DNA of 64,000 nucleotides from a virus (lineage: Duplodnaviria; Caudoviricetes): positions 4,662 through 68,661 of the IMG/VR virus record IMGVR_UViG_2571042804_000002; one strand, given 5' to 3'. The notes beneath the pieces are model-generated. The model saw nothing but the letters and a program-made list of their open reading frames with translations. It made no database searches and was not told where the DNA came from. The translations under genes and the position numbers were made by a program. This document shows, in pieces, positions 18,917-61,054 of the stretch; the stretch's first letter is position 1, and every line of letters begins with the position of its first letter.

Positions 18917-18927
18917 TTCATTTCCTC

Positions 18928-19380
18928 CTAATAACTCATTGTCATTTTTAAAATTTCGCATTCGCGTTTAATTTTTTCTCTTTTTTCTTTTTCTTCTAGT
19001 GACATACTTTCTTTAGGTGTTTCAACCAATTCAGATGTATCTACATCATCAATTTTTGTGATTTTGTCTACATCTTTCTTTAAATCTTCCGGGACGTTCT
19101 CGAAACGCTTATACTGCTCTTTAGAGATACTAGCAGCTATTTCATTAGCTCCTAAAACTTCATCTATTAAGCCAAAAGATAAGGCTTCTTCAGCAGTAAG
19201 CCATGTTTCTGCATCTAACATCTGCTTTAATTGTTCTTGATCTAAGTTTTTTGCTTTATCCAAATACGCTGAATTACTAACAGCATCTGTTTTATCAAGT
19301 AAATCCGCTGTCTTTCTTAATTCTTCTGCATTACCTACAGTCATAACCCATGAATTATGAATCATTAAAAAACTATTTTT
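18928..19380 (-). pseudogene. ClpP-type prohead protease, C-terminal part (interrupted by Tn916)
   Basis: KNSFLMIHNSW (catalytic His) ... ETWLTAEEALSFGLIDEV; joins in frame to 37421..37741 to give 257 aa. Confidence 0.93.
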
Positions 19381-19386
19381 GGGTTT
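19381..19386 (+). other. Tn916 coupling sequence GGGTTT (non-native, carried from previous site)
   Basis: Lies between target T-tract and Tn916 end; absent from the reconstructed protease gene, whose native hexamer GTGCAT is at 37421..37426. Confidence 0.88.
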
Positions 19387-19460
19387 AAAAATAGCATAAA
19401 AATCTAGTTATCCGCATAAAAACTGGACTTATCACACTTTATCAAGGTCAAAACCACTCA

Positions 19461-19482
19461 ATTTACTACTAATTTACTACTT
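19461..19482 (+). repeat. Tn916 Int arm-type direct repeats (DR-2)
   Basis: ATTTACTACT A ATTTACTACT T; related copies at about 37245..37280. Confidence 0.75.
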
Positions 19483-19580
19483 ATGAATGAGCTTTGATAC
19501 GACGATTTATCCTTGAAAAGTGAAGATATAAAGATACTTCCAATAAAATTTGAATATTTAATAGGTAGACACTTCAAAAA

Positions 19581-19700
19581 ATGAGGTGTCTATTTTTTTA
19601 CCCGATTTTGAAAGGAAGTGAACTTATGAAAACAAAAAATCAAGAATCAAAAGGTCGTTCCCCACTCTTTAAGACCATCAAACATTCATTCAGCCAATAA
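19581..19700 (+). CDS. Tn916 Orf24
   Basis: 39-aa MRCLFFYPILKGSELMKTKNQESKGRSPLFKTIKHSFSQ. Confidence 0.7.
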   Translation: MRCLFFYPILKGSELMKTKNQESKGRSPLFKTIKHSFSQ

Positions 19701-19722
19701 AAAAGAAAGGATAGGTAAAAAT

Positions 19723-20037
19723 ATGGAACTTAAATTTGTGATTCCCAACATGGAAAAAACATTCGGCAATTTAGAATTTGCTGGCGAGGATAAAGTCGTT
19801 CAGCGAAGAATCAACGGACGGCTAACTGTCTTATCAAGAAGCTATAATCTCTATTCTGATGTTCAAAGAGCAGATGATATTGTGGTGGTGCTTCCTGCTG
19901 AAGCTGGCGAAAAACATTTCGGCTTTGAGGAACGTGTGAAGTTAGTCAATCCACGTATTACCGCAGAGGGCTACAAAATCGGCACTCGTGGTTTTACAAA
20001 TTACCTTTTACATGCTGACGACATGATAAAAGAATAA
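19723..20037 (+). CDS. Tn916 Orf23 (YdcP/HelP-like)
   Basis: Recognised sequence and synteny. Confidence 0.9.
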   Translation: MELKFVIPNMEKTFGNLEFAGEDKVVQRRINGRLTVLSRSYNLYSDVQRADDIVVVLPAEAGEKHFGFEERVKLVNPRITAEGYKIGTRGFTNYLLHADDMIKE

Positions 20038-20052
20038 AGAAAGAGAGGAAAA

Positions 20053-20439
20053 ATGATGAGATTAGCAAATGGCATTGTATTAGATAAAGACACGACTTTT
20101 GGAGAATTGAAATTCTCTGCTCTACGTCGTGAAGTGAGAATCCAAAATGAAGACGGGTCGGTTTCAGATGAAATCAAGGAACGTACCTATGACTTAAAAT
20201 CCAAAGGACAAGGACGCATGATTCAAGTAAGTATTCCTGCCAGCGTGCCTTTGAAAGAGTTTGATTATAACGCACGGGTGGAACTTATCAATCCCATTGC
20301 GGACACCGTTGCTACTGCCACCTATCAAGGAGCAGATGTTGACTGGTATATCAAGGCAGACGATATTGTGCTGACAAAGGATTCTAGTTCATTCAAAGCT
20401 CAACCACAAGCAAAGAAAGAACCGACACAAGACAAATAG
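20053..20439 (+). CDS. Tn916 Orf22 (YdcP/HelP-like)
   Basis: Paralogous to Orf23; synteny. Confidence 0.9.
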   Translation: MMRLANGIVLDKDTTFGELKFSALRREVRIQNEDGSVSDEIKERTYDLKSKGQGRMIQVSIPASVPLKEFDYNARVELINPIADTVATATYQGADVDWYIKADDIVLTKDSSSFKAQPQAKKEPTQDK

Positions 20440-20467
20440 TCGCTAGGTAGAAAGGAGACTTTTTCGC

Positions 20468-21853
20468 ATGAAACAGCGTGGTAAAAGGATTCGCCCATCT
20501 GGTAAAGATTTAGTCTTTCATTTTACGATAGCGTCACTCCTGCCTGTTTTCCTGCTGGTTGTCGGACTGTTTCATGTGAAGACAATCCAGCAGATCAACT
20601 GGCAGGATTTTAACCTATCACAAGCAGATAAGATTGACATTCCCTATTTAATTATCAGTTTCAGTGTCGCAATTCTTATCTGCTTGCTGGTAGCGTTTGT
20701 ATTCAAACGGGTTCGCTATGATACGGTTAAACAACTTTACCACCGTCAAAAACTGGCAAAGATGATACTTGAAAACAAGTGGTATGAATCTGAACAGGTC
20801 AAAACAGAGGGTTTCTTTAAAGATAGTGCTGGTCGTACAAAGGAAAAGATAACCTACTTCCCTAAAATGTATTATCGACTTAAAAATGGCTTGATACAGA
20901 TACGGGTGGAAATCACGCTGGGAAAATATCAAGACCAACTCTTACACTTGGAAAAGAAATTAGAGAGTGGCTTGTACTGTGAGCTGACGGATAAAGAGTT
21001 AAAGGATTCCTATGTGGAATATACTTTGCTCTATGACACCATAGCCAGTCGTATTTCTATTGATGAAGTAGAAGCTAAAGATGGTAAACTTCGCTTAATG
21101 AAAAACGTATGGTGGGAATATGATAAGCTCCCTCATATGTTGATTGCTGGTGGTACAGGTGGCGGTAAAACTTACTTTATACTGACACTGATTGAAGCCT
21201 TGCTTCATACAGATTCAAAACTGTATATTCTTGACCCGAAAAATGCTGATCTTGCGGACTTAGGTTCTGTGATGGCAAATGTCTACTATAGAAAAGAAGA
21301 CTTGCTTTCTTGCATTGAAACATTCTATGAAGAAATGATGAAACGTAGTGAGGAAATGAAGCAGATGAAGAACTATAAGACTGGCAAAAATTATGCTTAC
21401 TTAGGTCTCCCGGCACACTTCTTAATCTTTGATGAATACGTCGCTTTCATGGAAATGCTGGGAACAAAAGAAAACACCGCAGTTATGAATAAGCTGAAAC
21501 AGATTGTCATGTTAGGTCGTCAAGCTGGCTTCTTTCTAATACTGGCTTGTCAACGTCCAGACGCAAAATATTTAGGCGACGGAATCCGTGATCAGTTTAA
21601 TTTCAGAGTGGCTTTAGGTCGTATGTCTGAAATGGGCTATGGCATGATGTTTGGCAGTGACGTACAAAAGGATTTCTTCTTAAAGCGAATCAAAGGTCGT
21701 GGCTATGTTGATGTAGGAACAAGTGTCATATCAGAGTTTTATACTCCCCTTGTACCAAAAGGATATGATTTCTTGGAGGAAATTAAAAAGTTATCCAACA
21801 GCAGACAGTCCACGCAGGCGACGTGCGAAGCGGAAGTCGCAGGTGTGGACTGA
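20468..21853 (+). CDS. Tn916 Orf21 FtsK/SpoIIIE-type coupling protein
   Basis: Two TM helices, Walker A GGTGGGKT, LIFDE, GRQAG. Confidence 0.93.
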   Translation: MKQRGKRIRPSGKDLVFHFTIASLLPVFLLVVGLFHVKTIQQINWQDFNLSQADKIDIPYLIISFSVAILICLLVAFVFKRVRYDTVKQLYHRQKLAKMILENKWYESEQVKTEGFFKDSAGRTKEKITYFPKMYYRLKNGLIQIRVEITLGKYQDQLLHLEKKLESGLYCELTDKELKDSYVEYTLLYDTIASRISIDEVEAKDGKLRLMKNVWWEYDKLPHMLIAGGTGGGKTYFILTLIEALLHTDSKLYILDPKNADLADLGSVMANVYYRKEDLLSCIETFYEEMMKRSEEMKQMKNYKTGKNYAYLGLPAHFLIFDEYVAFMEMLGTKENTAVMNKLKQIVMLGRQAGFFLILACQRPDAKYLGDGIRDQFNFRVALGRMSEMGYGMMFGSDVQKDFFLKRIKGRGYVDVGTSVISEFYTPLVPKGYDFLEEIKKLSNSRQSTQATCEAEVAGVD

Positions 21854-21861
21854 TCTTGCTG

Positions 21862-21916
21862 GCTGGTGTGGCAATAGCCACGCCAGCACTTACCCCCCCG
21901 TATCTAACAGGGGGGT
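21862..21916 (+). promoter_or_regulatory. Tn916 oriT
   Basis: ACCCCCCCGTATCTAACAGGGGGGT inverted repeat plus upstream GC hairpin, between orf21 and relaxase. Confidence 0.85.
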
Positions 21917-22030
21917 ACAAATCGACAGGAAACAGTCAAAAAAACATTAGAAAATCCTTTGGTTACAAGGGATTTACAAAATTTCAGCGTATGTCAAATG
22001 GGCTTTAAAAGTTGACATACGCCTTTTTGA

Positions 22031-23236
22031 TTGGAGGGATTTTTACTGAATGAACAAACTTGGTTACAGCATTTAAAAGAAAAACGCTTGGCTTATGGAC
22101 TATCTCAAAACCGTTTAGCTGTTGCGACTGGTATTACAAGGCAGTATCTAAGCGATATTGAAACAGGAAAAGTCAAGCCATCAGAGGATTTACAGCAGTC
22201 CCTTTGGGAAGCTCTGGAACGCTTCAATCCCGACGCTCCCCTTGAAATGCTGTTTGATTATGTAAGAATTCGCTTTCCGACAACAGACGTACAGCAGGTG
22301 GTCGAAAACATCTTACAACTGAAACTGTCCTATTTTCTTCATGAGGACTATGGTTTCTATTCTTATTCAGAGCATTATGCTTTAGGCGACATATTCGTCC
22401 TTTGCTCCCATGAACTGGACAAAGGAGTTCTGGTGGAATTGAAAGGTCGTGGGTGCAGACAATTTGAAAGCTATCTTCTGGCACAACAAAGAAGCTGGTA
22501 TGAGTTCTTTATGGACGTTTTGGTGGCTGGCGGTGTGATGAAACGCCTTGACCTTGCCATTAACGATAAGACAGGGATTTTAAATATCCCTGTACTCACT
22601 GAAAAGTGCCAACAGGAAGAATGTATCTCCGTCTTCCGCAGTTTTAAAAGCTATCGCAGTGGCGAACTGGTACGCAAAGAGGAAAAGGAATGTATGGGAA
22701 ACACCCTCTATATCGGTTCATTACAAAGTGAAGTTTATTTCTGTATCTATGAAAAGGACTACGAGCAGTACAAGAAAAATGATATTCCCATTGAAGACGC
22801 AGAAGTAAAAAACCGTTTTGAGATTCGATTGAAAAATGAGCGTGCCTATTATGCAGTCCGTGATTTACTCGTCTATGACAATCCAGAGCATACCGCCTTT
22901 AAAATTATCAATCGGTATATCCGTTTTGTAGATAAAGACGATTCCAAACCTCGTTCTGATTGGAAACTGAATGAAGAATGGGCTTGGTTTATTGGGAACA
23001 ATCGTGAACGATTAAAACTAACCACAAAACCAGAGCCTTACTCCTTCCAAAGGACGCTGAACTGGCTATCTCATCAAGTTGCCCCGACCTTAAAGGTTGC
23101 GATTAAACTTGATGAAATCAACCAGACGCAGGTTGTAAAAGACATTCTCGACCATGCGAAACTGACAGACCGACACAAGCAGATTTTGAAGCAACAGTCA
23201 GTAAAAGAACAGGACGTGATAACAACAAAAAAATAA
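22031..23236 (+). CDS. Tn916 Orf20 relaxase (MOBT/Rep_trans, N-terminal HTH)
   Basis: HTH, RLDLAIND, TLYIGS, YEKDYE, RFEIRL motifs. Confidence 0.93.
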   Translation: MEGFLLNEQTWLQHLKEKRLAYGLSQNRLAVATGITRQYLSDIETGKVKPSEDLQQSLWEALERFNPDAPLEMLFDYVRIRFPTTDVQQVVENILQLKLSYFLHEDYGFYSYSEHYALGDIFVLCSHELDKGVLVELKGRGCRQFESYLLAQQRSWYEFFMDVLVAGGVMKRLDLAINDKTGILNIPVLTEKCQQEECISVFRSFKSYRSGELVRKEEKECMGNTLYIGSLQSEVYFCIYEKDYEQYKKNDIPIEDAEVKNRFEIRLKNERAYYAVRDLLVYDNPEHTAFKIINRYIRFVDKDDSKPRSDWKLNEEWAWFIGNNRERLKLTTKPEPYSFQRTLNWLSHQVAPTLKVAIKLDEINQTQVVKDILDHAKLTDRHKQILKQQSVKEQDVITTKK

Positions 23237-23278
23237 CTCAAATACAAATTCATTGAATATAGAGAGGAGAACATTTTT

Positions 23279-23500
23279 ATGAATTTTGGACAAAACCTTT
23301 ATAACTGGTTTCTATCAAACGCTCAATCACTGGTGCTTTTAGCAATCGTTGTGATTGGCTTGTATCTTGGCTTCAAGCGTGAGTTTAGCAAACTGATTGG
23401 CTTTTTAATTATTGCGATTATTGCGGTTGGCTTAGTCTTCAACGCTGCTGGAGTAAAAGACATTTTACTAGAGCTATTCAATCGCATTATTGGTGCTTAA
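23279..23500 (+). CDS. Tn916 Orf19 membrane protein
   Basis: Two TM helices; synteny. Confidence 0.88.
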   Translation: MNFGQNLYNWFLSNAQSLVLLAIVVIGLYLGFKREFSKLIGFLIIAIIAVGLVFNAAGVKDILLELFNRIIGA

Positions 23501-23616
23501 ATAAAACCGTTCTTTTGTGGAATATAAGTGGTTTTCTTATGTTCCGCAAAGGAATGGTACACCAAACGAAGTGCGGTAGGGATTTTTGAATCTCTACAAA
23601 GAAAGGACGTGAATAT
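23501..23616 (+). other. Probable Tn916 single-strand origin region (sso916)
   Basis: orf19-orf18 intergenic region; assigned from recalled literature position only. Confidence 0.45.
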
Positions 23617-24114
23617 ATGGACGATATGCAAGTCTATATTGCGAATTTAGGCAAATACAATGAGGGCGAATTGGTCGGTGCGTGGTTTACCTTTCCCATT
23701 GACTTTGAGGAAGTCAAAGAGAAAATCGGCTTGAATGATGAATATGAGGAATACGCCATTCATGACTACGAGTTACCCTTTACGGTTGACGAATACACTT
23801 CCATTGGCGAACTCAATCGACTATGGGAAATGGTATCGGAATTACCCGAAGAATTACAATCGGAGCTATCTGCTCTGCTCACTCATTTTTCAAGCATTGA
23901 AGAACTAAGCGAACATCAAGAGGATATTATCATTCATTCCGATTGTGATGATATGTATGACGTGGCACGCTACTACATTGAAGAAACGGGTGCTTTAGGC
24001 GAAGTACCAGCTAGTCTTCAAAACTATATTGATTATCAAGCCTATGGTCGGGATTTAGACCTTTCAGGAACGTTTATCTCAACCAATCATGGGATTTTTG
24101 AAATCGTCTATTAA
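23617..24114 (+). CDS. ardA: Tn916 Orf18 anti-restriction DNA mimic ArdA
   Basis: Highly acidic; YIANLGKYNEG, YIDYQAYGRDL motifs. Confidence 0.93.
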   Translation: MDDMQVYIANLGKYNEGELVGAWFTFPIDFEEVKEKIGLNDEYEEYAIHDYELPFTVDEYTSIGELNRLWEMVSELPEELQSELSALLTHFSSIEELSEHQEDIIIHSDCDDMYDVARYYIEETGALGEVPASLQNYIDYQAYGRDLDLSGTFISTNHGIFEIVY

Positions 24115-24202
24115 ATCTGTCGGTACATTACTACTGGCAGATTTTCTATTTTACGGGGTGGCTCAATCAGCTACCCCTATTTTTTATGAAAGGATTGATT
24201 AC

Positions 24203-24595
24203 ATGAAGAAAATACGAAGCTATACCAGTATCTGGTCTGTGGAAAAGGTACTGTATTCTATCAATGATTTTAGACTTCCGTTTCCCATAACCTTTACGCA
24301 AATGACATGGTTTGTCGTGTCACTCTTTGCAGTGATGATACTTGGCAACTTGCCCCCTCTTTCCATGATAGAGGGAGCATTTCTCAAATACTTTGGGATT
24401 CCTGTGGCTTTCACATGGTTTATGTCTACAAAAACTTTTGATGGTAAAAAGCCTTATGGATTTTTGAAGTCTGTCATTGCTTATGCACTGCGACCAAAGC
24501 TGACCTATGCAGGAAAAAAAGTAACGCTTGGCAGAAACCAGCCACAAGAAGCCATTACAGCAGTTAGGAGTGAATTTTATGGCATATCCAATTAA
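24203..24595 (+). CDS. Tn916 Orf17 (TcpE/VirB3-like)
   Basis: RBS supports MKKIRSY start (longer 24089 start also open); DGKKP motif. Confidence 0.85.
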   Translation: MKKIRSYTSIWSVEKVLYSINDFRLPFPITFTQMTWFVVSLFAVMILGNLPPLSMIEGAFLKYFGIPVAFTWFMSTKTFDGKKPYGFLKSVIAYALRPKLTYAGKKVTLGRNQPQEAITAVRSEFYGISN

Positions 24596-27026
24596 ATACA
24601 TTGAAAACAATCTCGTCTGGAATAAAGACGGGGAATGTTATGCTTACTATGAGCTTGTTCCTTACAATTACTCATTTCTAAGTCCAGAACAGAAAATACA
24701 AGTGCATGATTCTTTCAGACAGCTTATCGCACAAAATCGTGATGGCAAAATTCATGCTTTACAAATCAGTACAGAATCCAGCATACGTTCTGCACAAGAG
24801 CGTTCCAAAAATGAAGTCACTGGCAAGCTCAAAGCGGTTGCCTATGACAAAATCGACCAACAGACAGACGCTTTAATATCCATGATTGGCGAAAATCAAG
24901 TGAACTACCGTTTCTTTATCGGCTTTAAGTTGCTTCTCAACGATCAGGAGTTTTCTATGAAAAGTCTTACCGTTGAAGCAAAAAATGCTTTGTCTGATTT
25001 TGTCTATGATGTGAACCATAAGCTGATGGGCGATTTTGTTAGTATGAGTAATGATGAAATCCTGCGTTTTCAGAAGATGGAAAAGCTCTTAGAAAATAAA
25101 ATCTCTCGTCGTTTCAAAATCCGCAGGTTAGATAAGGACGACTTCGGCTATCTGATTGAACACCTTTACGGACAGACAGGCACTGCCTATGAAGAGTATG
25201 AGTACCATCTATCAAAGAAAAAGCTGGATAATGAAACGCTGATTAAATACTATGACTTGATTAAGCCTACTCGCTGTTTGGTGGAAGAAAAACAGCGATA
25301 TTTGAAAATCCAGCAGGAAGATGAAACCGTCTATGTAGCTTACTTTACCATTAACAGCATTGTCGGAGAACTGGACTTCCCGTCCTCTGAAATCTTCTAC
25401 TACCAGCAACAGCAATTTACATTCCCGATTGATACGTCAATGAATGTGGAAATTGTAGCGAATCGTAAAGCCCTATCTACTGTCCGCAATAAAAAGAAAG
25501 AACTGAAAGACTTGGATAACCACGCTTGGCAAAGTGATAATGAAACCAGCTCCAATGTGGCGGAAGCTCTGGAAAGTGTGAATGAGCTGGAAACCAATTT
25601 AGACCAAAGCAAGGAATCTATGTACAAGCTGTCTTATGTGGTAAGGGTATCAGCAAATGATCTTGACGAACTCAAACGTCGTTGTAATGAAGTGAAAGAT
25701 TTTTATGACGATTTAAGCGTAAAACTGGTACGACCATTTGGGGATATGCTCGGCTTACATGAAGAATTTTTACCTGCCAGCAAGCGTTATATGAATGATT
25801 ATATTCAATACGTGACCTCTGATTTCCTCGCTGGTTTAGGTTTTGGTGCTACTCAAATGCTGGGGGAAAATGAGGGGATTTATGTTGGCTACAGCTTAGA
25901 TACTGGACGCAATGTCTATCTGAAACCTGCTCTTGCCAGTCAAGGGGTTAAGGGTTCAGTAACCAATGCGTTAGCGTCGGCTTTTGTTGGTTCGCTGGGT
26001 GGTGGTAAATCCTTTGCGAATAACCTTATCGTCTATTATGCGGTGCTTTATGGGGCACAAGCAGTGATTGTAGACCCAAAAGCAGAACGTGGCAGATGGA
26101 AAGAAACCTTGCCAGAGATTTCCCATGAAATCAATATCGTCACTCTGACTTCTGATGAGAAAAACAAAGGCTTACTTGACCCTTATGTGATTATGAAAAA
26201 TCCCAAAGATTCTGAATCACTGGCTATTGATATTCTGACATTCCTTACGGGGATTTCCTCTCGTGATGGGGAACGCTTCCCAATCCTTAGAAAAGCCATT
26301 CGTGCAGTAACCAATAGTGAAGTACGAGGGTTGATGAAAGTGATTGAGGAATTACGGGTTGAGAATACGCCACTAAGTACCAGTATAGCCGACCATATCG
26401 AAAGTTTTACAGACTATGACTTTGCACATTTATTATTCAGTAATGGTTATGTGGAGCAGTCTATCAGCTTAGAAAAACAACTGAACATTATACAGGTTGC
26501 GGACTTGGTACTTCCCGACAAGGAAACTTCCTTTGAGGAATATACCACTATGGAGCTTTTATCCGTTGCTATGCTGATTGTCATTAGTACCTTTGCTTTA
26601 GACTTTATCCATACAGACCGAAGCATTTTCAAGATTGTAGATTTAGACGAAGCATGGAGCTTTTTACAGGTAGCACAAGGAAAAACACTATCTATGAAGC
26701 TGGTTCGGGCTGGTCGTGCTATGAACGCTGGGGTATATTTCGTGACCCAAAATACAGACGACCTCTTAGATGAAAAACTGAAAAATAACCTCGGCTTAAA
26801 ATTTGCATTTCGTTCCACTGACCTTAACGAGATTAAAAAGACCTTAGCCTTTTTTGGTGTAGACCCAGAGGACGAAAACAATCAGAAGCGATTGCGTGAT
26901 TTGGAAAACGGGCAATGCCTTATCAGTGATTTATATGGTCGTGTCGGTGTGATACAGTTCCACCCTGTATTTGAAGAACTGCTCCATGCCTTTGATACCA
27001 GACCACCTGTGCGAAAAGAGGTGTAA
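24579..27026 (+). CDS. Tn916 Orf16 VirB4-like ATPase
   Basis: GSLGGGKS, DPKAE, LDEAW motifs. Confidence 0.93.
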   Translation: MAYPIKYIENNLVWNKDGECYAYYELVPYNYSFLSPEQKIQVHDSFRQLIAQNRDGKIHALQISTESSIRSAQERSKNEVTGKLKAVAYDKIDQQTDALISMIGENQVNYRFFIGFKLLLNDQEFSMKSLTVEAKNALSDFVYDVNHKLMGDFVSMSNDEILRFQKMEKLLENKISRRFKIRRLDKDDFGYLIEHLYGQTGTAYEEYEYHLSKKKLDNETLIKYYDLIKPTRCLVEEKQRYLKIQQEDETVYVAYFTINSIVGELDFPSSEIFYYQQQQFTFPIDTSMNVEIVANRKALSTVRNKKKELKDLDNHAWQSDNETSSNVAEALESVNELETNLDQSKESMYKLSYVVRVSANDLDELKRRCNEVKDFYDDLSVKLVRPFGDMLGLHEEFLPASKRYMNDYIQYVTSDFLAGLGFGATQMLGENEGIYVGYSLDTGRNVYLKPALASQGVKGSVTNALASAFVGSLGGGKSFANNLIVYYAVLYGAQAVIVDPKAERGRWKETLPEISHEINIVTLTSDEKNKGLLDPYVIMKNPKDSESLAIDILTFLTGISSRDGERFPILRKAIRAVTNSEVRGLMKVIEELRVENTPLSTSIADHIESFTDYDFAHLLFSNGYVEQSISLEKQLNIIQVADLVLPDKETSFEEYTTMELLSVAMLIVISTFALDFIHTDRSIFKIVDLDEAWSFLQVAQGKTLSMKLVRAGRAMNAGVYFVTQNTDDLLDEKLKNNLGLKFAFRSTDLNEIKKTLAFFGVDPEDENNQKRLRDLENGQCLISDLYGRVGVIQFHPVFEELLHAFDTRPPVRKEV

Positions 27027-27028
27027 AT

Positions 27029-29207
27029 GTGAAACCATCAATAGTAAACAGAATAAAATCAAACTGGACGCTGAAACGTCTAGGTAAAGTGGCAATGACA
27101 GTGGCTTTCACACTTGTGATTGCCATTTTTCTTTTAGCCATGCTGGGAACGGTGGTTCAAGCTGCGGGCTTGGTAGATGATACGGTCAATGTGGCAAATG
27201 AATACAGCCGATACCCACTTGAAAACTATCAACTGGATTTTTATGTGGATAATAGCTGGGGCTGGCTTCCGTGGAACTGGTCGGACGGGATTGGAAAACA
27301 GGTCATGTATGGACTATATGCCATTACCAATTTTATTTGGACAATCAGTTTGTATGTTTCCAATGCGACAGGTTACTTAGTACAGGAAGCCTATTCCTTA
27401 GACTTCATTTCCGCTACAGCAGATTCCATTGGTAAGAATATGCAGACCTTAGCTGGTGTGAGTGCAAACGGATTTTCAACAGAGGGTTTCTATGTTGGAT
27501 TCCTCTTACTCTTGATTTTGGTTCTTGGGGTTTATGTTGCCTATACGGGACTGATAAAGAGAGAAACCACAAAGGCAATTCATGCCATTATGAATTTTGT
27601 GCTGGTGTTTATCCTATCGGCTTCCTTTATTGCCTACGCTCCCGACTACATTAAAAAAAATCAATGACTTTTCATCAGACATCAGTAATGCCAGTTTATC
27701 ACTTGGCACGAAGATTGTCATGCCCCATTCCGATAGTCAAGGCAAGGACAGCGTGGACTTAATCAGAGATAGCCTGTTTTCCATACAGGTTCAGCAACCG
27801 TGGCTACTGCTTCAATACAACAGTTCAGACATTGAAAGTATCGGTATTGACCGTGTGGAAAGCCTGCTCTCCACCAGCCCAGATTCCAACAATGGCGAAG
27901 ACAGAGAAAAAATTGTTGCGGAAGAAATTGAAGACAGAAGCAATACCAATCTAACCATTACAAAGACCATTAACCGTTTAGGTACAGTCTTCTTCCTATT
28001 TGTCTTCAATATTGGGATTTCCATATTTGTATTCCTATTAACAGGAATCATGATTTTCTCGCAGGTACTTTTTATCATCTATGCTATGTTTCTGCCTGTG
28101 AGCTTTATTTTAAGCATGATTCCATCATTTGATGGTATGTCAAAACGAGCCATAACAAAGCTCTTTAATACCATTTTGACACGAGCTGGAATCACATTGA
28201 TTATTACGACAGCATTTAGTATTTCAACCATGCTCTATACCTTATCGGCTGGTTATCCGTTCTTTTTGATTGCTTTTCTACAGATTGTGACCTTTGCAGG
28301 AATCTACTTCAAGCTGGGCGATTTAATGAGTATGTTTTCTCTACAGAGTAACGATTCTCAAAGTGTGGGAAGTCGTGTGATGAGAAAACCTCGTATGCTT
28401 ATGCACGCTCACATGCACCGTCTACAGCGGAAACTTGGACGTTCCATGACTACTCTAGGGGCTGGGTCTGCCATTGTTACAGGTAAAAAAGGACAGTCGG
28501 GTTCGGGGAGTTCTGCAAGGACACAAGCAGATCACTCCCGACCAGACGGAAAGGAAAAATCAACACTTGGAAAACGTATCGGTCAAACCATCGGTACAGT
28601 AGCTGATACCAAAGACAGAATGGTAGACACTGCTAGTGGTTTGAAAGAACAGGTTAAAGATTTGCCGACCAATGCAAGATATGCAGTATATCAAGGAAAA
28701 TCCAAAGTAAAAGAGAATGTCCGTGATTTAACCAGTAGTATTTCTCAAACCAAAGCGGACAGAGCCAGTGGACGCAAGGAACAGCAGGAACAAAGGCGAA
28801 AAACCATTGCGAAGCGTCGCTCTGAAATGGAACAGGTCAAACAGAAAAAACAGCCTGCTTCTTCTGTTCATGAAAGACCGACTACAAGACAAGAACAATA
28901 TCATGATGAACAGACCTCAAAACAGTCTAATATTCAGACTTCATATAAGGAATCTCAACAAGCCAAACAAGAGCGTCCAGCAGTTAAGTCCGATTTTTCA
29001 AGTCCAAAAGTGGAACGCCAAGGCAATACCGTTCAAGAAAAAACCGTTCAAAAGCCAGCAACTTCAACCACTACAGCAGATAGAACTTCACAACGTCCAA
29101 TCACAAAAGAACGTCCGTCTACTGTTCAAAGAGTACCACTACAAAATACAAGAAGTAGACCACCAATCAAAACCGCCACCATTAAGAAAGTCGGTAAGAA
29201 ACCATGA
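27029..29207 (+). pseudogene. Tn916 Orf15 (VirB6-like membrane channel), frameshifted
   Basis: Split into 27029..27667 and a downstream frame; A8 at 27653..27660, where A7 restores YIKKINDF and a 725-aa ORF. Confidence 0.85.
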
Positions 29208-30205
29208 AGTTGAAAACTTTAGTGATTGGTGGTTCTGGATTATTCTTGATGGTCTTCTCACTGCTTCTGTTTGTTGCCATTTTATTTTCAGATGAACAGG
29301 ACAGCGGAATTTCCAATATTCATTATGGAGGTGTGAATGTTTCCGCAGAAGTGCTGGCTCATAAGCCTATGGTAGAAAAATATGCCAAAGAATATGGCGT
29401 TGAAGAATATGTCAACATACTTCTTGCGATTATACAGGTGGAATCGGGCGGTACTGCGGAAGATGTTATGCAGTCCTCGGAATCCCTCGGTCTTCCACCT
29501 AATTCATTGAGTACAGAAGAATCCATTAAGCAAGGTGTGAAGTATTTCAGTGAATTATTAGCCAGTAGCGAAAGGCTCAGTGTAGATTTAGAATCGGTTA
29601 TCCAGTCCTACAATTATGGTGGTGGTTTCTTAGGGTATGTGGCTAATCGTGGAAATAAATATACCTTTGAACTGGCTCAAAGTTTCTCAAAAGAGTATTC
29701 AGGTGGCGAAAAAGTGTCTTACCCCAATCCCATAGCCATACCTATCAATGGGGGCTGGCGATACAACTATGGCAATATGTTTTATGTGCAACTGGTAACG
29801 CAGTATCTTGTCACAACAGAGTTTGATGATGATACGGTACAAGCCATCATGGACGAAGCACTGAAATATGAGGGCTGGCGATACGTTTACGGTGGAGCTT
29901 CCCCGACTACTTCTTTTGATTGTAGCGGACTGACACAATGGACGTATGGAAAAGCTGGAATTAACTTACCACGAACCGCACAACAGCAATATGATGTGAC
30001 CCAGCATATCCCACTATCGGAAGCACAAGCTGGCGATTTGGTTTTCTTTCATTCTACCTATAACGCTGGCTCTTATATTACTCATGTTGGGATATACCTT
30101 GGCAATAACCGTATGTTTCATGCAGGCGACCCAATCGGTTATGCCGACTTAACAAGCCCCTACTGGCAACAGCATTTAGTGGGAGCAGGACGAATCAAAC
30201 AATGA
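29204..30205 (+). CDS. Tn916 Orf14 cell-wall hydrolase (lysozyme-like + NlpC/P60)
   Basis: QVESGG...DVMQSSES; FDCSG...HVGIY. Confidence 0.93.
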   Translation: MKLKTLVIGGSGLFLMVFSLLLFVAILFSDEQDSGISNIHYGGVNVSAEVLAHKPMVEKYAKEYGVEEYVNILLAIIQVESGGTAEDVMQSSESLGLPPNSLSTEESIKQGVKYFSELLASSERLSVDLESVIQSYNYGGGFLGYVANRGNKYTFELAQSFSKEYSGGEKVSYPNPIAIPINGGWRYNYGNMFYVQLVTQYLVTTEFDDDTVQAIMDEALKYEGWRYVYGGASPTTSFDCSGLTQWTYGKAGINLPRTAQQQYDVTQHIPLSEAQAGDLVFFHSTYNAGSYITHVGIYLGNNRMFHAGDPIGYADLTSPYWQQHLVGAGRIKQ

Positions 30206-31134
30206 GAAAGGAAGATTTAATGATGAAATTTAGAAAAAATCAGAATAAAGAAAAACAGATACCAAAGGAAAAGAAACCTCGTGTCTATAAGGTCAATCCT
30301 CATAAAAAGGTTGTGATTGCCTTGTGGGTACTTTTAGGGCTTAGTTTCAGCTTTGCGATATTCAAGCACTTTACAGCTATAGATACTCATACTATTCACG
30401 AAACAACTATCATAGAAAAGGAATACGTTGATACTCATCATGTAGAAAATTTTGTAGAGAACTTTGCGAAAGTCTACTATTCATGGGAGCAATCCGATAA
30501 GTCCATTGATAATCGAATGGAAAGTCTAAAAGGCTATCTGACAGATGAACTTCAAGCTCTCAATGTTGATACAGTACGCAAAGATATTCCTGTATCGTCT
30601 TCTGTAAGAGGATTTCAGATATGGACGGTAGAGCCAACTGGCGACAATGAGTTTAATGTAACCTACAGTGTAGACCAGCTCATTACAGAGGGAGAAAATA
30701 CAAAGACCGTCCACTCTGCTTATATTGTGAGTGTCTATGTAGATGGTTCTGGAAATATGGTACTGGTTAAGAATCCGACCATTACCAACATACCTAAGAA
30801 ATCAAGTTATAAACCAAAAGCCATTGAAAGTGAGGGGACGGTTGATTCCATTACAACCAATGAAATCAATGAGTTTTTAACGACGTTCTTCAAGCTCTAT
30901 CCTACAGCGACAGCCAGTGAACTTTCCTACTATGTGAATGACGGGATATTAAAACCAATCGGAAAAGAGTACATCTTTCAAGAACTGGTAAATCCTATTC
31001 ACAATCGTAAGGATAATCAAGTCACGGTATCGCTGACAGTGGAGTATATCGACCAGCAGACCAAAGCAACGCAGGTATCTCAATTTGATTTGGTACTTGA
31101 AAAGAACGGGAGTAATTGGAAGATTATAGAATAA
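30202..31134 (+). CDS. Tn916 Orf13 (TcpC/VirB8-like)
   Basis: Single TM plus extracellular domain; synteny. Confidence 0.9.
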   Translation: MRKEDLMMKFRKNQNKEKQIPKEKKPRVYKVNPHKKVVIALWVLLGLSFSFAIFKHFTAIDTHTIHETTIIEKEYVDTHHVENFVENFAKVYYSWEQSDKSIDNRMESLKGYLTDELQALNVDTVRKDIPVSSSVRGFQIWTVEPTGDNEFNVTYSVDQLITEGENTKTVHSAYIVSVYVDGSGNMVLVKNPTITNIPKKSSYKPKAIESEGTVDSITTNEINEFLTTFFKLYPTATASELSYYVNDGILKPIGKEYIFQELVNPIHNRKDNQVTVSLTVEYIDQQTKATQVSQFDLVLEKNGSNWKIIE

Positions 31135-31203
31135 CAAATATTGGTACATTATTACAGCTATTTTGTAATCACGTACTCTCTTTGATAAAAAATTGGAGAT
31201 TCC

Positions 31204-31232
31204 TTTACAAATATGCTCTTACGTGCTATTAT
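31204..31232 (+). promoter_or_regulatory. tet(M) promoter
   Basis: TTTACA-17 nt-TATTAT. Confidence 0.7.
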
Positions 31233-31408
31233 TTAAGTATCTATTTAAAAGGAGTTAATAAATATGCGGCAAGGTATTCTTAAATAAACTGTCAATTTGA
31301 TAGTGGGAACAAATAATTGGATGTCCTTTTTTAGGAGGGCTTAGTTTTTTGTACCCAGTTTAAGAATACCTTTATCATGTGATTCTAAAGTATCCGGAGA
31401 ATATCTGT

Positions 31409-31495
31409 ATGCTTTGTATGCCTATGGTTATGCATAAAAATCCCAGTGATAAGAGTATTTATCACTGGGATTTTTATGCCCTTTTGGGCTTTTGA
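31409..31495 (+). CDS. tet(M) leader peptide Orf12
   Basis: MLCMPMVMHKNPSDKSIYHWDFYALLGF (28 aa). Confidence 0.85.
   Translation: MLCMPMVMHKNPSDKSIYHWDFYALLGF
31432..31485 (+). terminator. tet(M) attenuator hairpin
   Basis: Perfect 21-bp inverted repeat GCATAAAAATCCCAGTGATAA / TTATCACTGGGATTTTTATGC. Confidence 0.85.
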
Positions 31496-31510
31496 ATGGA
31501 GGAAAATCAC

Positions 31511-33430
31511 ATGAAAATTATTAATATTGGAGTTTTAGCTCATGTTGATGCGGGAAAAACTACCTTAACAGAAAGCTTATTATATAACAGTGGAGCGATT
31601 ACAGAATTAGGAAGCGTGGACAAAGGTACAACGAGGACGGATAATACGCTTTTAGAACGTCAGAGAGGAATTACAATTCAGACAGGAATAACCTCTTTTC
31701 AGTGGGAAAATACGAAGGTGAACATCATAGACACGCCAGGACATATGGATTTCTTAGCAGAAGTATATCGTTCATTATCAGTTTTAGATGGGGCAATTCT
31801 ACTGATTTCTGCAAAAGATGGCGTACAAGCACAAACTCGTATATTATTTCATGCACTTAGGAAAATGGGGATTCCCACAATCTTTTTTATCAATAAGATT
31901 GACCAAAATGGAATTGATTTATCAACGGTTTATCAGGATATTAAAGAGAAACTTTCTGCCGAAATTGTAATCAAACAGAAGGTAGAACTGTATCCTAATA
32001 TGTGTGTGACGAACTTTACCGAATCTGAACAATGGGATACGGTAATAGAGGGAAACGATGACCTTTTAGAGAAATATATGTCCGGTAAATCATTAGAAGC
32101 ATTGGAACTCGAACAAGAGGAAAGCATAAGATTTCAGAATTGTTCTCTGTTCCCTCTTTATCATGGAAGTGCAAAAAGTAATATAGGGATTGATAACCTT
32201 ATAGAAGTTATTACTAATAAATTTTATTCATCAACACATCGAGGTCCGTCTGAACTTTGCGGAAATGTTTTCAAAATTGAATATACAAAAAAAAGACAAC
32301 GTCTTGCATATATACGCCTTTATAGTGGAGTACTACATTTACGAGATTCGGTTAGAGTATCAGAAAAAGAAAAAATAAAAGTTACAGAAATGTATACTTC
32401 AATAAATGGTGAATTATGTAAGATTGATAGAGCTTATTCTGGAGAAATTGTTATTTTGCAAAATGAGTTTTTGAAGTTAAATAGTGTTCTTGGAGATACA
32501 AAACTATTGCCACAGAGAAAAAAGATTGAAAATCCGCACCCTCTACTACAAACAACTGTTGAACCGAGTAAACCTGAACAGAGAGAAATGTTGCTTGATG
32601 CCCTTTTGGAAATCTCAGATAGTGATCCGCTTCTACGATATTACGTGGATTCTACGACACATGAAATTATACTTTCTTTCTTAGGGAAAGTACAAATGGA
32701 AGTGATTAGTGCACTGTTGCAAGAAAAGTATCATGTGGAGATAGAACTAAAAGAGCCTACAGTCATTTATATGGAGAGACCGTTAAAAAATGCAGAATAT
32801 ACCATTCACATCGAAGTGCCGCCAAATCCTTTCTGGGCTTCCATTGGTTTATCTGTATCACCGCTTCCGTTGGGAAGTGGAATGCAGTATGAGAGCTCGG
32901 TTTCTCTTGGATACTTAAATCAATCATTTCAAAATGCAGTTATGGAAGGGATACGCTATGGTTGCGAACAAGGATTATATGGTTGGAATGTGACGGATTG
33001 TAAAATCTGTTTTAAGTACGGTTTATACTATAGCCCTGTTAGTACTCCAGCAGATTTTCGGATGCTTGCTCCTATTGTATTGGAACAAGTCTTAAAAAAA
33101 GCTGGAACAGAATTGTTAGAGCCATATCTTAGTTTTAAAATTTATGCGCCACAGGAATATCTTTCACGAGCATACAACGATGCTCCTAAATATTGTGCGA
33201 ACATCGTAGACACTCAATTGAAAAATAATGAGGTCATTCTTAGTGGAGAAATCCCTGCTCGGTGTATTCAAGAATATCGTAGTGATTTAACTTTCTTTAC
33301 AAATGGACGTAGTGTTTGTTTAACAGAGTTAAAAGGGTACCATGTTACTACCGGTGAACCTGTTTGCCAGCCCCGTCGTCCAAATAGTCGGATAGATAAA
33401 GTACGATATATGTTCAATAAAATAACTTAG
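31511..33430 (+). CDS. tetM: Tetracycline ribosomal protection protein TetM
   Basis: 639 aa EF-G-like GTPase: [24 protein letters not shown]. Confidence 0.99.
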
Positions 33431-33527
33431 TGTATTTTATGTTGTTATATAAATATGGTTTCTTGTTAAATAAGATGAAATATTTTTTAATAAAGATTTG
33501 AATTAAAGTGTAAAGGAGGAGATAGTT

Positions 33528-33716
33528 ATTATAAACTACAAGTGGATATTGTGTCCTGTATGTGGAAATAAAACACGATTAAAGATAAGGGAAGATACTG
33601 AATTAAAAAAATTCCCCCTCTATTGTCCGAAATGCAGACAAGAAAATTTAATTGAAATAAAGCAGTTCAAAGTAACTGTGATTACAGAGCCAGACGCAAA
33701 GACGCAGAGCCGATAA
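33528..33716 (+). CDS. Tn916 Orf6, cysteine-rich KTR protein
   Basis: WILCPVCGNKTR...LYCPKC; non-ATG start after AGGAGG. Confidence 0.7.
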   Translation: MINYKWILCPVCGNKTRLKIREDTELKKFPLYCPKCRQENLIEIKQFKVTVITEPDAKTQSR

Positions 33717-33775
33717 AATGAGATTAATACAATCTCATTTTATCGGCTCTTTCCGTTATGTATGGATTCTTTTAA

Positions 33776-34129
33776 TTAGTCTTCGATGTTTCTTGCTTCG
33801 TTGATACCGCTGGCTAAAGATTCCATTAAGGATAGTTCTTTGTCTGTAAAGCTATCCATGTATTTCTCTATCTGTAATCGTCGGGTGCTTTTTACCAAGT
33901 TATTAGCAGGTAAGAAAAATTCATCAACGGAAACATGAAGTAACGATACAAGGTCATAAAGAACTTGTATGCTGGGGTGTTGCCCTTTATTTTCAATATT
34001 AGTTAAGTACCGTGGGTCAATTTCAATCAATGCTCCCACTTGTTCACGAGTTAAACCTCGTTTCAATCGAGCTTCTTTAATGGCTAAACCAAAGGCTCTA
34101 AAATCATATTTATCTTCTTTTTTACGCAT
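33776..34129 (-). CDS. Tn916 Orf9 XRE repressor
   Basis: HTH_3 motif; synteny. Confidence 0.9.
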
Positions 34130-34333
34130 AGTAGACCACCTCTATACATTTTATTGTTCCTACTGAATTAAAAACAGGTATAGAAAAACGTGTTATATGG
34201 TTTATAGGTTTATATTTAATAAAAAGCACTACTAAACGCCAATAAAAAAAACCGTTATATGGTAGTGCTATTTACGCTGTTAAAATATTGTATATTACTT
34301 CCAAATGGCGGTTTGTTGGAGGTCAACGTCGCC

Positions 34334-34405
34334 ATGAAGTACATCATATACAATAAATTTCCTTACATTGGGTTCTTGTCAAAAAAAGTCGTCTATCTGC
34401 AATAG
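34334..34405 (+). CDS. Tn916 Orf10 (small)
   Basis: 23-aa MKYIIYNKFPYIGFLSKKVVYLQ with GGAGG RBS. Confidence 0.5.
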   Translation: MKYIIYNKFPYIGFLSKKVVYLQ

Positions 34406-34633
34406 ATAAGTACGTCCACCAATGTGGTTTTATAAATCATATAGATAGAATAACAGAAGCATGTAAACAGAGAAATAAATCTGTTTATATGCTTTTTTGG
34501 CTATTCAGAACTTTTTTACAAAGTTTATTTATCAGTAATGCAACAAATCCCCCTTTCACATTGGGACTAAGAGTGAAAGGAGATAAACGAGCAAGGCTCA
34601 CTTCCTTTCCTAGACAGAAAGGGGGTGAGAAAC

Positions 34634-35056
34634 ATGAAACCATCTTCTTTTCAGACCACAATAGAAAATCAGTTTGACTATATCTGTAAACGTGCTATGG
34701 AAGACGAGCGAAAGAATTATATGCTTTATCTTTCAAGGATTGCAAAGCGTGAGGTGTCCTTTTCGGATGTTGGCGATTATCTTGTTAGCCAGTTTGCGAC
34801 AACAGATAACTATTCAACTGACTTTCAGATTTTTACACTCAATGGGTTATCAGTAGGCGTTGAAAATGATTTGTTGAGTGAAGCATTACGTGAGTTGCCA
34901 GACAAGAAACGTGAAATTCTACTGCTGTTTTACTTTATGGACATGAGCGATTCAGAAATTGCAGACCTGTTGAAATTGAACCGTTCTACTGTCTATCGGC
35001 ATAGAACCAGTGGACTAGCCTTAATTAAAAAGTTTATGGAGGAATTTGAAGAATGA
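34634..35056 (+). CDS. Tn916 Orf7 sigma-70 region 4-like activator
   Basis: LPDKKREILLL...SDSEIADLL...RSTVYRH. Confidence 0.9.
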   Translation: MKPSSFQTTIENQFDYICKRAMEDERKNYMLYLSRIAKREVSFSDVGDYLVSQFATTDNYSTDFQIFTLNGLSVGVENDLLSEALRELPDKKREILLLFYFMDMSDSEIADLLKLNRSTVYRHRTSGLALIKKFMEEFEE

Positions 35057-35283
35057 AAACACAATATCCTATGATTCCCTTTCCTCTCATTGTAAAGGCA
35101 ACAGATGGCGATACCGAAGCGATTAACCAGATTCTACATCATTACAGAGGGTACATAACGAAGCGTTCCCTACGACTTATGAAAGATGAATATGGCAATC
35201 AAAGTATGGTCGTTGATGAAGTCTTACGTGGAAGAATGGAAACCAGACTGATTACAAAGATTTTGTCATTTGAAATTAAGTAA
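35053..35283 (+). CDS. Tn916 Orf8 HTH activator
   Basis: ATGA overlap with orf7; recognised sequence. Confidence 0.88.
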   Translation: MKTQYPMIPFPLIVKATDGDTEAINQILHHYRGYITKRSLRLMKDEYGNQSMVVDEVLRGRMETRLITKILSFEIK

Positions 35284-35508
35284 TATCCTCTCTCCTTTCG
35301 TGGAAGCGTGCTAAACCATTCCACGCTTCCCGAACAGGGAGGTTTGTTATTCCACCAAAGCATATTGAGCTTTCAATGTGTTTTGATAGGCTAACGAGCC
35401 ATTGTTCTTTGAAAACTGAATAAAAGTAATCGAATACGTTTCGATAAGAAAAGAGCCAACGGAACTAACCGCCATGACCTATCTTATAAAGATAGCGAGC
35501 GATTCATG

Positions 35509-35760
35509 TTAGTGATCCGAGAAGCAATCTTTAGCAGGATTGCCTGCAACGACATTCTTATCGTGATAATGATACTCCCATACAGTCAATAGTCCGAGCG
35601 TGATAAAACCGTCGCAGGCAATGAGTATGGCTACATGAGAACCATGCAGGGGTGGAACTCCCGTGAGCTTTGCTAAAGCTGTTCGATTGCTGGTAAAACA
35701 ACTTTTATGAAATCCAAATAAGTGATTTGGAAAGGAGGATTTTATGAAGCAGACTGACAT
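35509..35760 (-). CDS. Tn916 Orf5 (hypothetical)
   Basis: Annotated position in Tn916; coding status doubtful. Confidence 0.4.
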
Positions 35761-35947
35761 TCCTATTTGGGAACGTTATACCCTAACCATTGAAGAAGCG
35801 TCAAAATATTTTCGTATTGGCGAAAACAAGCTACGACGCTTGGCAGAGGAAAATAAAAATGCAAATTGGCTGATTATGAATGGCAATCGTATTCAGATTA
35901 AACGAAAACAATTTGAAAAAATTATAGATACATTGGACGCAATCTAG
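35744..35947 (+). CDS. xis: Tn916 excisionase
   Basis: [31 protein letters not shown]. Confidence 0.96.
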
Positions 35948-36028
35948 CGTCGCCAAAGGGTCTTGTATATGATAAAATAGTATTAAGTCGTATCAAGGCT
36001 CTTTCCATAAAGGAAAGGAGCAAATGCC

Positions 36029-37246
36029 ATGTCAGAAAAAAGACGTGACAATAAAGGTCGAATCTTAAAGACTGGAGAGAGCCAACGAAAAGACGGAAGA
36101 TACTTATACAAATATATAGATTCATTTGGAGAACCGCAATTTGTTTACTCGTGGAAACTTGTGGCTACAGACCGAGTACCAGCAGGAAAGCGTGATTGTA
36201 TCTCACTTAGAGAGAAAATCGCAGAGTTACAGAAAGACATTCATGATGGTATTGATGTTGTAGGAAAGAAAATGACACTCTGCCAGCTTTACGCAAAACA
36301 GAACGCTCAAAGACCAAAGGTTAGAAAAAACACTGAAACTGGACGCAAATATCTTATGGATATTTTGAAGAAAGACAAGTTAGGTGTAAGAAGTATTGAC
36401 AGTATTAAGCCATCAGACGCTAAAGAATGGGCTATTAGAATGAGTGAAAATGGTTATGCTTATCAAACCATCAATAACTACAAACGTTCTTTAAAGGCTT
36501 CATTCTATATTGCTATACAAGATGATTGTGTTCGGAAGAATCCATTTGACTTTCAACTGAAAGCAGTTCTTGATGATGATACTGTCCCTAAGACCGTACT
36601 AACAGAAGAACAGGAAGAAAAACTGTTAGCCTTTGCAAAAGCTGATAAAACCTACAGCAAAAATTATGATGAAATTCTGATACTCTTAAAAACAGGTCTT
36701 CGTATTTCAGAGTTTGGTGGTTTGACACTTCCAGATTTAGATTTTGAGAATCGTCTTGTCAATATAGACCATCAGCTATTGAGAGATACTGAAATTGGGT
36801 ACTACATTGAAACACCAAAGACCAAAAGTGGCGAACGTCAAGTTCCTATGGTTGAAGAAGCCTATCAAGCATTTAAGCGAGTGTTAGCGAATCGAAAGAA
36901 TGATAAGCGTGTTGAGATTGATGGATATAGTGATTTCCTCTTTCTTAATAGAAAGAACTATCCAAAAGTGGCAAGTGATTACAACGGCATGATGAAAGGT
37001 CTTGTTAAGAAATACAATAAGTATAACGAGGATAAATTGCCACACATCACTCCACATAGTTTGCGACATACATTCTGTACCAACTATGCAAATGCAGGAA
37101 TGAATCCAAAGGCATTACAGTACATTATGGGACATGCTAATATAGCCATGACGCTGAACTATTACGCACATGCAACATTCGATTCTGCAATGGCAGAAAT
37201 GAAACGCTTGAATAAAGAGAAGCAACAGGAGCGTCTTGTTGCTTAG
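36029..37246 (+). CDS. int: Tn916 tyrosine integrase
   Basis: TGLRISE, HSLRH, MGH, YYAH intact. Confidence 0.97.
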   Translation: MSEKRRDNKGRILKTGESQRKDGRYLYKYIDSFGEPQFVYSWKLVATDRVPAGKRDCISLREKIAELQKDIHDGIDVVGKKMTLCQLYAKQNAQRPKVRKNTETGRKYLMDILKKDKLGVRSIDSIKPSDAKEWAIRMSENGYAYQTINNYKRSLKASFYIAIQDDCVRKNPFDFQLKAVLDDDTVPKTVLTEEQEEKLLAFAKADKTYSKNYDEILILLKTGLRISEFGGLTLPDLDFENRLVNIDHQLLRDTEIGYYIETPKTKSGERQVPMVEEAYQAFKRVLANRKNDKRVEIDGYSDFLFLNRKNYPKVASDYNGMMKGLVKKYNKYNEDKLPHITPHSLRHTFCTNYANAGMNPKALQYIMGHANIAMTLNYYAHATFDSAMAEMKRLNKEKQQERLVA

Positions 37247-37420
37247 TAGTACAAATGAATTTACTACTTATTTACCACTTCTGACAGCTAAGACATGAGG
37301 AAATATGCAAAGAAACGTGAAGTATCTTCCTACAGTAAAAATACTCGAAAGCACATAGAATAAGGCTTTACGAGCATTTAAGAAAATATAAAAAGATAAT
37401 TAGAAATTTATACTTTGTTT

Positions 37421-37741
37421 GTGCATAAAAATAGTGTCACCACTCATAGCGATAACACTAGCAATTGATGCCGCTAAGGCATCGACATAGATATTAATTT
37501 TTGCAGGATGCATTTTTAGCATATTGTATATTGCATGCCCTTCAAATACACTGCCTCCAGATGAATTTATATGAACATCTATTTCACTGATGTCTCCTAG
37601 TTCATCTAGTTTATTTTTGAAATCTGTAGCAGTTACATCACTTTCAAACCATTTATCACTTACAATATCACCATAAATAAATATTTCACCTTTACTTTTT
37701 GATTTTCTTTTCATTTGAAAATACTTAGCTTTCATTGACAT
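37421..37741 (-). pseudogene. ClpP-type prohead protease, N-terminal part (interrupted by Tn916)
   Basis: INSSGGSV, ALAASIAS (catalytic Ser), ends GDTIFMH at the junction; reads on into Tn end as KQSINF*. Confidence 0.93.
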
Positions 37742-38963: not shown

Positions 38964-38967
38964 CTCC

Positions 38968-61012: not shown

Positions 61013-61020
61013 CTTAAATC

Positions 61021-61038
61021 TGCCCTTTTTTTGCCCTT
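61021..61038 (+). repeat. TGCCCTT direct repeat, candidate integrase arm sites
   Basis: TGCCCTTTTTTTGCCCTT between int stop and att core. Confidence 0.45.
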
Positions 61039-61054
61039 ATATTTTTTACAAGCT

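Follow-up and report, generated by a model that had tools for sequence, protein, structure and literature searches.

The stretch of DNA analysed here (64,000 nucleotides; hereafter the window) comprises bases 4662–68661 of IMG/VR record IMGVR_UViG_2571042804_000002, a provirus of 68,661 bases. Judged by its sequence, the window outside positions 19381–37426 is a temperate siphovirus of Staphylococcus aureus of the phiSLT/JD419 type (genus Triavirus), a cos prophage. Between these positions lies Tn916, an integrative conjugative element conferring tetracycline resistance, which splits the phage gene for the prohead (head-maturation) protease into two fragments. Coordinates refer to the window unless they are given as bases of the record.

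Anatomy of the split protease gene

Both fragments lie on the minus strand and were delimited by Pfam matches, alignment to phage JD419 and translation: the N-terminal fragment (37421–37741; residues 1–107) carries the ClpP-type serine motif, and the C-terminal fragment (18928–19380; residues 108–257 plus the stop codon) carries the histidine motif. Their matches to the Pfam profile CLP_protease (PF00574; 182 positions) are complementary, covering 39–98 for the N-terminal piece (E 6.7e-14) and 106–180 for the C-terminal piece (E 1.8e-11). Aligned to the intact 257-residue protease of JD419, whose DNA reads ctattttt GTGCAT aaaaatag over the insertion point, the fragments abut exactly at His107|Lys108, with identities of 100% and 97% and no residue missing or extra. 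Removal of the insert thus rebuilds the 257-residue protein, as an earlier note on this DNA had stated. The same note had placed the catalytic serine and histidine on opposite sides of the insertion, and this holds as well: the serine of an AAS motif (residue 92) and the histidine of an MIH motif (residue 115), separated by the break, align with the active-site motifs of solved ClpP chains and are presumably the catalytic residues.

The N-terminal fragment ends in Met-His, the reverse complement of GTGCAT at 37421–37426, and its frame runs on for six codons into Tn916 to a stop at 37400–37402, giving a product of 113 residues. The C-terminal fragment is 150 residues long, and the break supplies it with neither a start codon nor a ribosome site. 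Homologues carry the source name "head maturation protease, ClpP-related", and the gene sits between those for the portal and the HK97-type capsid protein. The two codons at the break are strongly conserved: of 120 homologue clusters, which reach down to 65% identity, 119 read Met-His and a single one reads Met-Tyr; Met-His is likewise found in all seven close 257-residue relatives among those listed from a 2,398-member cluster that includes portal proteins. Clusters at 90% identity that hold protease fragments also include full-length capsid (387 residues) or portal (412 residues) proteins, which probably reflects overlapping or fused gene calls, and the sizes of such clusters are not usable as protease counts.

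A native and an imported coupling sequence at a unique target

The element is flanked by unlike 6-bp coupling sequences, GTGCAT at the int end (37421–37426) and GGGTTT at the orf24 end (19381–19386). Which of them belongs to the phage? A pattern search of IMG/VR for both phage flanks around any six bases returned 43 uninterrupted sites; 42 contain GTGCAT, as does JD419, and one contains ATGCAT, which is synonymous and again encodes Met-His. Neither GGGTTT, nor any 6-mer beyond these two, nor any other spacer length occurs among these 43 sites. GTGCAT is thus the phage's own sequence, and GGGTTT was imported from the previous site of the element. Consistently, the donor-derived coupling sequence of Tn916 has been placed at the left end of the element (PMC12084037), in agreement with the position of GGGTTT. 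The earlier note was right that GTGCAT restores the wild-type Met-His and that GGGTTT, read on the minus strand, gives Lys-Pro in frame.

The consensus target of Tn916 has been described as TTTTTA[AT][AT][AT][AT]AAAAA, that is, palindromic runs of T and A six bases apart (PMC12084037). The 64-kb window contains a single T5-N6-A5 match, located at the junction, compared with a mean of 2.2 matches in shuffled sequences. In the full site, CTATTTTT-N6-AAAAATAG, the two 8-bp arms are perfectly palindromic and match the Tn916 end exactly; the motif is spelled by the conserved protease codons Ile-Phe-Met-His-Lys-Asn. It follows that a hotspot for the element resides in the protease gene of every phage of the phiSLT/JD419 group. 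Target preference suffices to explain the position of the insertion. Excision that preserves the reading frame is textbook behaviour of Tn916. The earlier note had read the arrangement as codon-exact and reversible; the 6-mer does correspond to two codons, but a swap of six base pairs for six preserves any frame irrespective of codon alignment, and the alignment itself is a one-in-three coincidence.

Recurrence of the junctions in other assemblies

Sequencing runs X1, X3 and X5 each yielded contigs of ~47 kb that cover 18900–37800 in one piece. Contigs of a fourth run, X12, bridge both junctions and differ by two C>T substitutions in 18.9 kb, so that at least two distinguishable genomes carry the same insertion. 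All ten junction words sampled are present in 14 runs from eight samples and seven studies, although every one of these runs, the four just named included, is a possible source of the window DNA and thus weak as independent support. Stronger support comes from the exact 113-residue product (residues 1–107 followed by six Tn916-encoded residues), which arises only from this junction and is found on 256 public contigs, the longest of 2.88 Mb. The exact 145-residue open reading frame of the C-terminal side is found on 249.

In scans from which records close to the window may have been excluded, the junction pattern with any 6-mer had no match in viral, species-representative genome or metagenome contigs, and the junction in opposite orientation had none in viral contigs. 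A published catalogue of Tn916 sites (supplements of PMC12229494) contains neither phage words nor junction motifs, in a table whose flank format may hide one, and the open-access full-text literature, including PMC5294865, PMC6872895, PMC5932375 and PMC10763498, yielded no description of this insertion. Taken together, the assemblies indicate that this is one insertion event, vertically inherited by a well-sequenced clone.

A further public protein (P0136) represents a 109-residue protease on a single contig of 2.97 Mb; it is identical through Met-His and then continues for two residues to a stop. This suggests that, in another genome, the frame shifts exactly at the Tn916 target; an imprecise footprint might account for it, or an error in sequencing.

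The Tn916 copy

Tn916 occupies 19387–37420 on the plus strand (18,034 bp), from the orf24-side end AAAAATAG... to the int-side end ...CTTTGTTT, in agreement with the end sequences given in a 2025 survey (PMC12229494). A full-length alignment to the pCF10 copy has 18,035 columns and contains 33 substitutions and a single gap (99.8% identity; 99.8–99.9% to other plasmid-borne copies), and the gene order of the element from orf24 to int is that of the pCF10 annotation. As expected of the element, imperfect terminal repeats are flanked by the unlike coupling sequences within a T-rich/A-rich target. The termini and the whole of 33047–37420 show no difference from pCF10, so that the genes for regulation and recombination equal those of a copy annotated as whole. 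The unchanged part includes the integrase (36029–37246, plus strand; PF02920, E 1.1e-33; PF00589, E 2.9e-46), the excisionase (35744–35947, plus strand; PF09035, E 1.7e-19) and the regulatory genes orf9 (minus strand), orf7 and orf8 (both plus strand) at 33776–35283, annotated in pCF10 as a helix-turn-helix regulator, a sigma-70-family protein and a helix-turn-helix protein. The open frame of tet(M) (31496–33430, plus strand; 644 codons) encodes EF-G-type domains, and the start annotated in pCF10 corresponds to ~31511; upstream, at ~31379–31495, lies the leader/attenuator region, for which the homologous pCF10 stretch has an annotated leader peptide. Substitutions relative to pCF10 cluster in this leader region and in two patches of tet(M) (31126–31489 and 32137–33046), the rest of the element being nearly identical, and this distribution resembles allelic mosaicism of tet(M).

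Of the genes for transfer, those for the FtsK-like protein and the MobT/Rep_trans relaxase encode the expected domains. The gene orf15 for a membrane protein of the transfer apparatus (27029–29207, plus strand) is a single gene of 725 codons in pCF10 and is broken here into two frames of 212 and 536 codons by a one-base length difference in an A-run near 27653. Runs X1, X3 and X12 share the state of the window, whereas X5, like pCF10, has a single frame; the difference is either real variation or a homopolymer error. The conjugation module of the window copy is thus incomplete at orf15, its other transfer genes being full length, and the variable frame suggests that most copies are without self-transfer. 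This break bears on conjugation and not on excision. The earlier note had described the element as intact, which is accurate for int, xis, orf7, orf8, orf9 and both ends, all unchanged relative to pCF10, but it had overlooked the split orf15.

The surrounding prophage

The packaging block of the phage is 97.6% identical to JD419 and ~92% identical to phiSLT. Its capsid block is 98.5–99.8% identical to 12 phage records among the matches listed and reaches at least 95% identity in 77 of 80 matching records. The minus strand encodes, in order, an HNH endonuclease, the small and large terminase subunits, the portal, the ClpP-type protease, the HK97-type capsid protein, head-tail connectors, tail proteins, holin and endolysin; the plus strand carries the lysogeny module and a tyrosine integrase. 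Among these late genes, portal and large terminase (37725–40668, minus strand; PF04860, E 4.5e-75, and TerL domains) lie upstream of the break, both with the stop-to-stop lengths of JD419. Downstream lies the major capsid protein, a frame of 402 codons (17753–18961, minus strand) with PF05065 over residues 143–391, which is presumably the substrate of the protease.

Is the rest of the phage sound? We compared stop-to-stop frame lengths between the window and JD419. All large minus-strand frames of JD419 with a counterpart in the window have the same length there, except the protease (262 versus 159). The lengths agree for portal (416/416), large terminase (570/570), capsid protein (404/404), primase (819/819), polymerase (657/657) and endolysin (485/485), and the tail proteins are also unchanged. 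The remaining differences concern short plus-strand frames, replaced mosaic modules and the tape-measure gene, which wraps around the origin of the JD419 record. By this measure, the Tn916 insertion is the only lesion visible in an otherwise intact prophage.

The prophage integrase (59807–61012, plus strand; phrog_1, E 2e-84) is followed by one copy of a 28-bp direct repeat found by repeat search (61096–61123; integrase and repeat together, 59807–61123). The second copy of this attachment (att) repeat lies at record base 2126, outside the window, and the two repeats bracket ~63.6 kb, corresponding to a phage of ~45.6 kb plus the insert. The att repeat is located within the 3' end of a 680-codon gene (phrog_4512, function unknown; window 61055–63097, minus strand, and record bases 1950–2311). 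This gene adjoins DUF1672 lipoprotein genes, which border the prophage on both sides and share an identical stretch of 290 bp. The 4.7 kb beyond the endolysin contain two DUF1672 genes on the host side and one phage protein of unknown function; no leukocidin (PVL) domain was found in these 4.7 kb. The phage protein, of 295 residues (record 2540–3427, minus strand; phrog_9659, E 3e-190; no Pfam match), lies between att repeat and endolysin and occupies the position of the PVL genes in related phiSa2-type phages.

Expected consequences for phage production

How might the insertion affect the phage? By separating the serine and histidine motifs, it would leave no active protease. The insertion also parts the packaging genes from those for capsid, tail and lysis by 18 kb of DNA in the opposite orientation, and it raises the att-to-att length from ~45.6 to ~63.6 kb, with a cos-to-cos length ~40% over that of the normal genome. 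By analogy with HK97 and phi12, the protease is probably essential. The 402-residue capsid protein of phi12 and phiSLT carries an N-terminal delta domain that is cut off by a phage protease (PMC5052747), and the capsid frame of the window has the same length, places its capsid fold at residues 143–391 and encodes a near-identical protein. We infer in addition that the insertion is polar on the downstream late genes and that the enlarged genome exceeds the capacity of the capsid; packaging in the cos phages phi12 and phiSLT is limited by size (PMC5052747). From this anatomy we envision a prophage that would make no normal particles for as long as Tn916 is in place.

Excision would remove this obstacle. 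Tn916 integrase joins coupling sequences that differ from each other by way of a heteroduplex (model of Caparon and Scott, 1989, as cited in PMC5812530), excision requires Xis, and tetracycline relieves attenuation upstream of tet(M), thereby raising expression driven by orf7 and orf8 (PMC5812530). The earlier note's account, that excision leaves either 6-mer and is linked to tetracycline through attenuation, agrees with this published model. The model implies that phage production would need the loss of Tn916 and that the site would afterwards carry either 6-mer. Excision would keep the frame in both cases, so that rare cells may regain a working phage, as a generic by-product of Tn916 chemistry rather than by design. 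The two products need not be equivalent: the Lys-Pro form replaces nearly invariant residues eight positions before the histidine and, on the strength of this conservation, may not work. The Lys-Pro allele occurs in none of the 120 homologue clusters, the seven listed close 257-residue proteins and the 43 uninterrupted sites.

How often might excision occur? Published estimates place it at ~0.1–3% of cells, with 0.07% in one experiment; the enhancement by tetracycline is modest, and cells with an activated element cease dividing and die (PMC9632896). No joints are reported for the assembled contigs of X1, X3, X5 and X12, in which rare forms are invisible. Judged from its orientation, late transcription of the phage would enter Tn916 antisense to int and xis.

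Discussion

Several features can be read directly from the sequences: the anatomy of the locus, which of its 6-mers is native and which imported, that the target is unique, that the rest of the phage is intact, and that the junction recurs in many assemblies. We consider it very probable that Tn916, at full length, integrated by chance into the one strong target that this phage offers it, that the prophage was thereby locked, and that the combination was then inherited vertically within a clone. In this scenario the T5-N6-A5 target with its 8-bp palindromic arms, lying in the ClpP-type protease gene, would capture the element; the insertion would lock the prophage; and the clone would carry both along by vertical descent. 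The earlier note had itself allowed that the insertion may be accidental, and given the unique target and the lack of recurrence this caveat is the better reading. Beyond that note, the present account adds the assignment of native and imported 6-mer, the unique hotspot, the otherwise intact phage, the clonal spread and the broken orf15.

Some points weigh against this explanation, or against parts of it. The record covers the 68.7-kb provirus, and another prophage of the host might complement it. A scan of Tn916 for terminator-like sites gave 14 against 12.2 expected, which is chance level and leaves the polar effect unsupported either way. The contig counts (256 and 249) may include one isolate through several sources. 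Finally, persistence of the arrangement on ~250 contigs with no decay elsewhere in the prophage could reflect selection that favours either the lock or an occasional reversion. A young clone could account for it just as well, X12 differing by only two bases in 18.9 kb.

If selection did play a part, then it might have acted on the disarmed state itself. An accidental hit could have been kept because the prophage no longer kills its host, because it provides a low-cost harbour for tet(M), or for both reasons, and the ~250 contigs that share the junction are in line with such an advantage. Clonal hitch-hiking with tet(M), however, explains these counts equally well, and the rest of the prophage shows no relaxed constraint; we therefore consider selected disarmament improbable. 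A more elaborate possibility is that selection in a successful clone of S. aureus has kept the nesting as a lock that can be reopened, such that antibiotics targeting the ribosome indirectly license release and yield both wild-type and Lys-Pro revertants. We regard this as a long shot.

The earlier note had gone further in suggesting a two-input gate on phage production. As an evolved device, the nesting would be maintained so that release requires both the SOS response and excision of Tn916 brought about by translation-inhibiting antibiotics, and phages would come with two protease alleles. Part of this proposal is sound, since production of phage logically depends on the loss of Tn916. The phage is also otherwise intact, as are the recombination and regulation genes of Tn916, the arrangement persists on many contigs, and published regulation ties excision to tetracycline (PMC5812530). 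Yet the position is accounted for by target preference, and the other insertions or two-codon scars that the earlier note had envisaged at this position did not turn up: the junction is absent elsewhere in the viral, genome and metagenome contigs, all 43 uninterrupted sites are free of scars, and neither scars nor Lys-Pro alleles appear in the 120 homologue clusters or the seven listed close 257-residue proteins. Moreover, excision takes place in 0.07–3% of cells, with a modest effect of tetracycline and death of the activated cells (PMC9632896), and late transcription antisense to int and xis would be poor design. The chance that an evolved gate underlies this arrangement thus appears very slim. 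Misassembly, in which a Tn916 from another locus was attached to the phage by way of AT-rich ends, gains a little from the resemblance of both junction arms to the Tn916 end, but its likelihood is negligible, because independent Logan contigs of four runs bridge both junctions (three as single pieces of ~47 kb), gene callers logged the junction-specific protein on 256 contigs of up to 2.88 Mb, and both junctions, with their unlike 6-mers, are built as is canonical for Tn916.

Chance integration followed by clonal inheritance places the locus within a known kind of event: it is insertional inactivation by Tn916, one mobile element grounding a prophage, and it involves no new mechanism. With classic cases it shares the element (99.8% identity), the AT-rich palindromic target, the combination of one native and one imported 6-mer and the in-frame chemistry of excision. 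It differs in that the interrupted gene is a virion-assembly gene, which we infer to be essential, of a resident prophage, so that one mobile element disables another. In work of the 1980s on the pAD1 haemolysin, excision of Tn916 reportedly restored the function of the interrupted gene.

Clonal inheritance of Tn916 in S. aureus has a precedent in livestock-associated CC398, where a chromosomal copy was acquired once and is stably inherited by descent, being absent from five of 704 isolates (PMC9239682). In both cases a single acquisition has been followed by clonal inheritance, and in CC398 the element is apparently still able to leave. There, however, Tn916 lies beside a core gene, whereas here it lies in a prophage and its orf15 is frame-broken in most copies examined. 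The locus also resembles active lysogeny, as described for phi10403S in comK (PMC7397523) and phiSa3 in hlb (PMC6597384), where a gene is split and function returns on excision. In active lysogeny, by contrast, the insertion is site-specific, recurs from strain to strain and follows host cues, whereas here a non-site-specific integrase has interrupted a phage gene in a single clone. In the contigs searched and at the 43 uninterrupted sites, neither recurrence in independent lineages or related phages nor footprints of past cycles, both marks of active lysogeny, were found.

What does this insertion mean in practice? Prophage predictors will report an intact phage with tet(M) for the 63.6-kb region, which in its present state the phage is unable to package. 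The 113-residue junction product provides a simple marker for the clone. For the biology of S. aureus and its phages, the locus represents a clean natural case: in a human pathogen, a temperate phage has been put out of action by a resistance element, and clonal descent has spread the two together.

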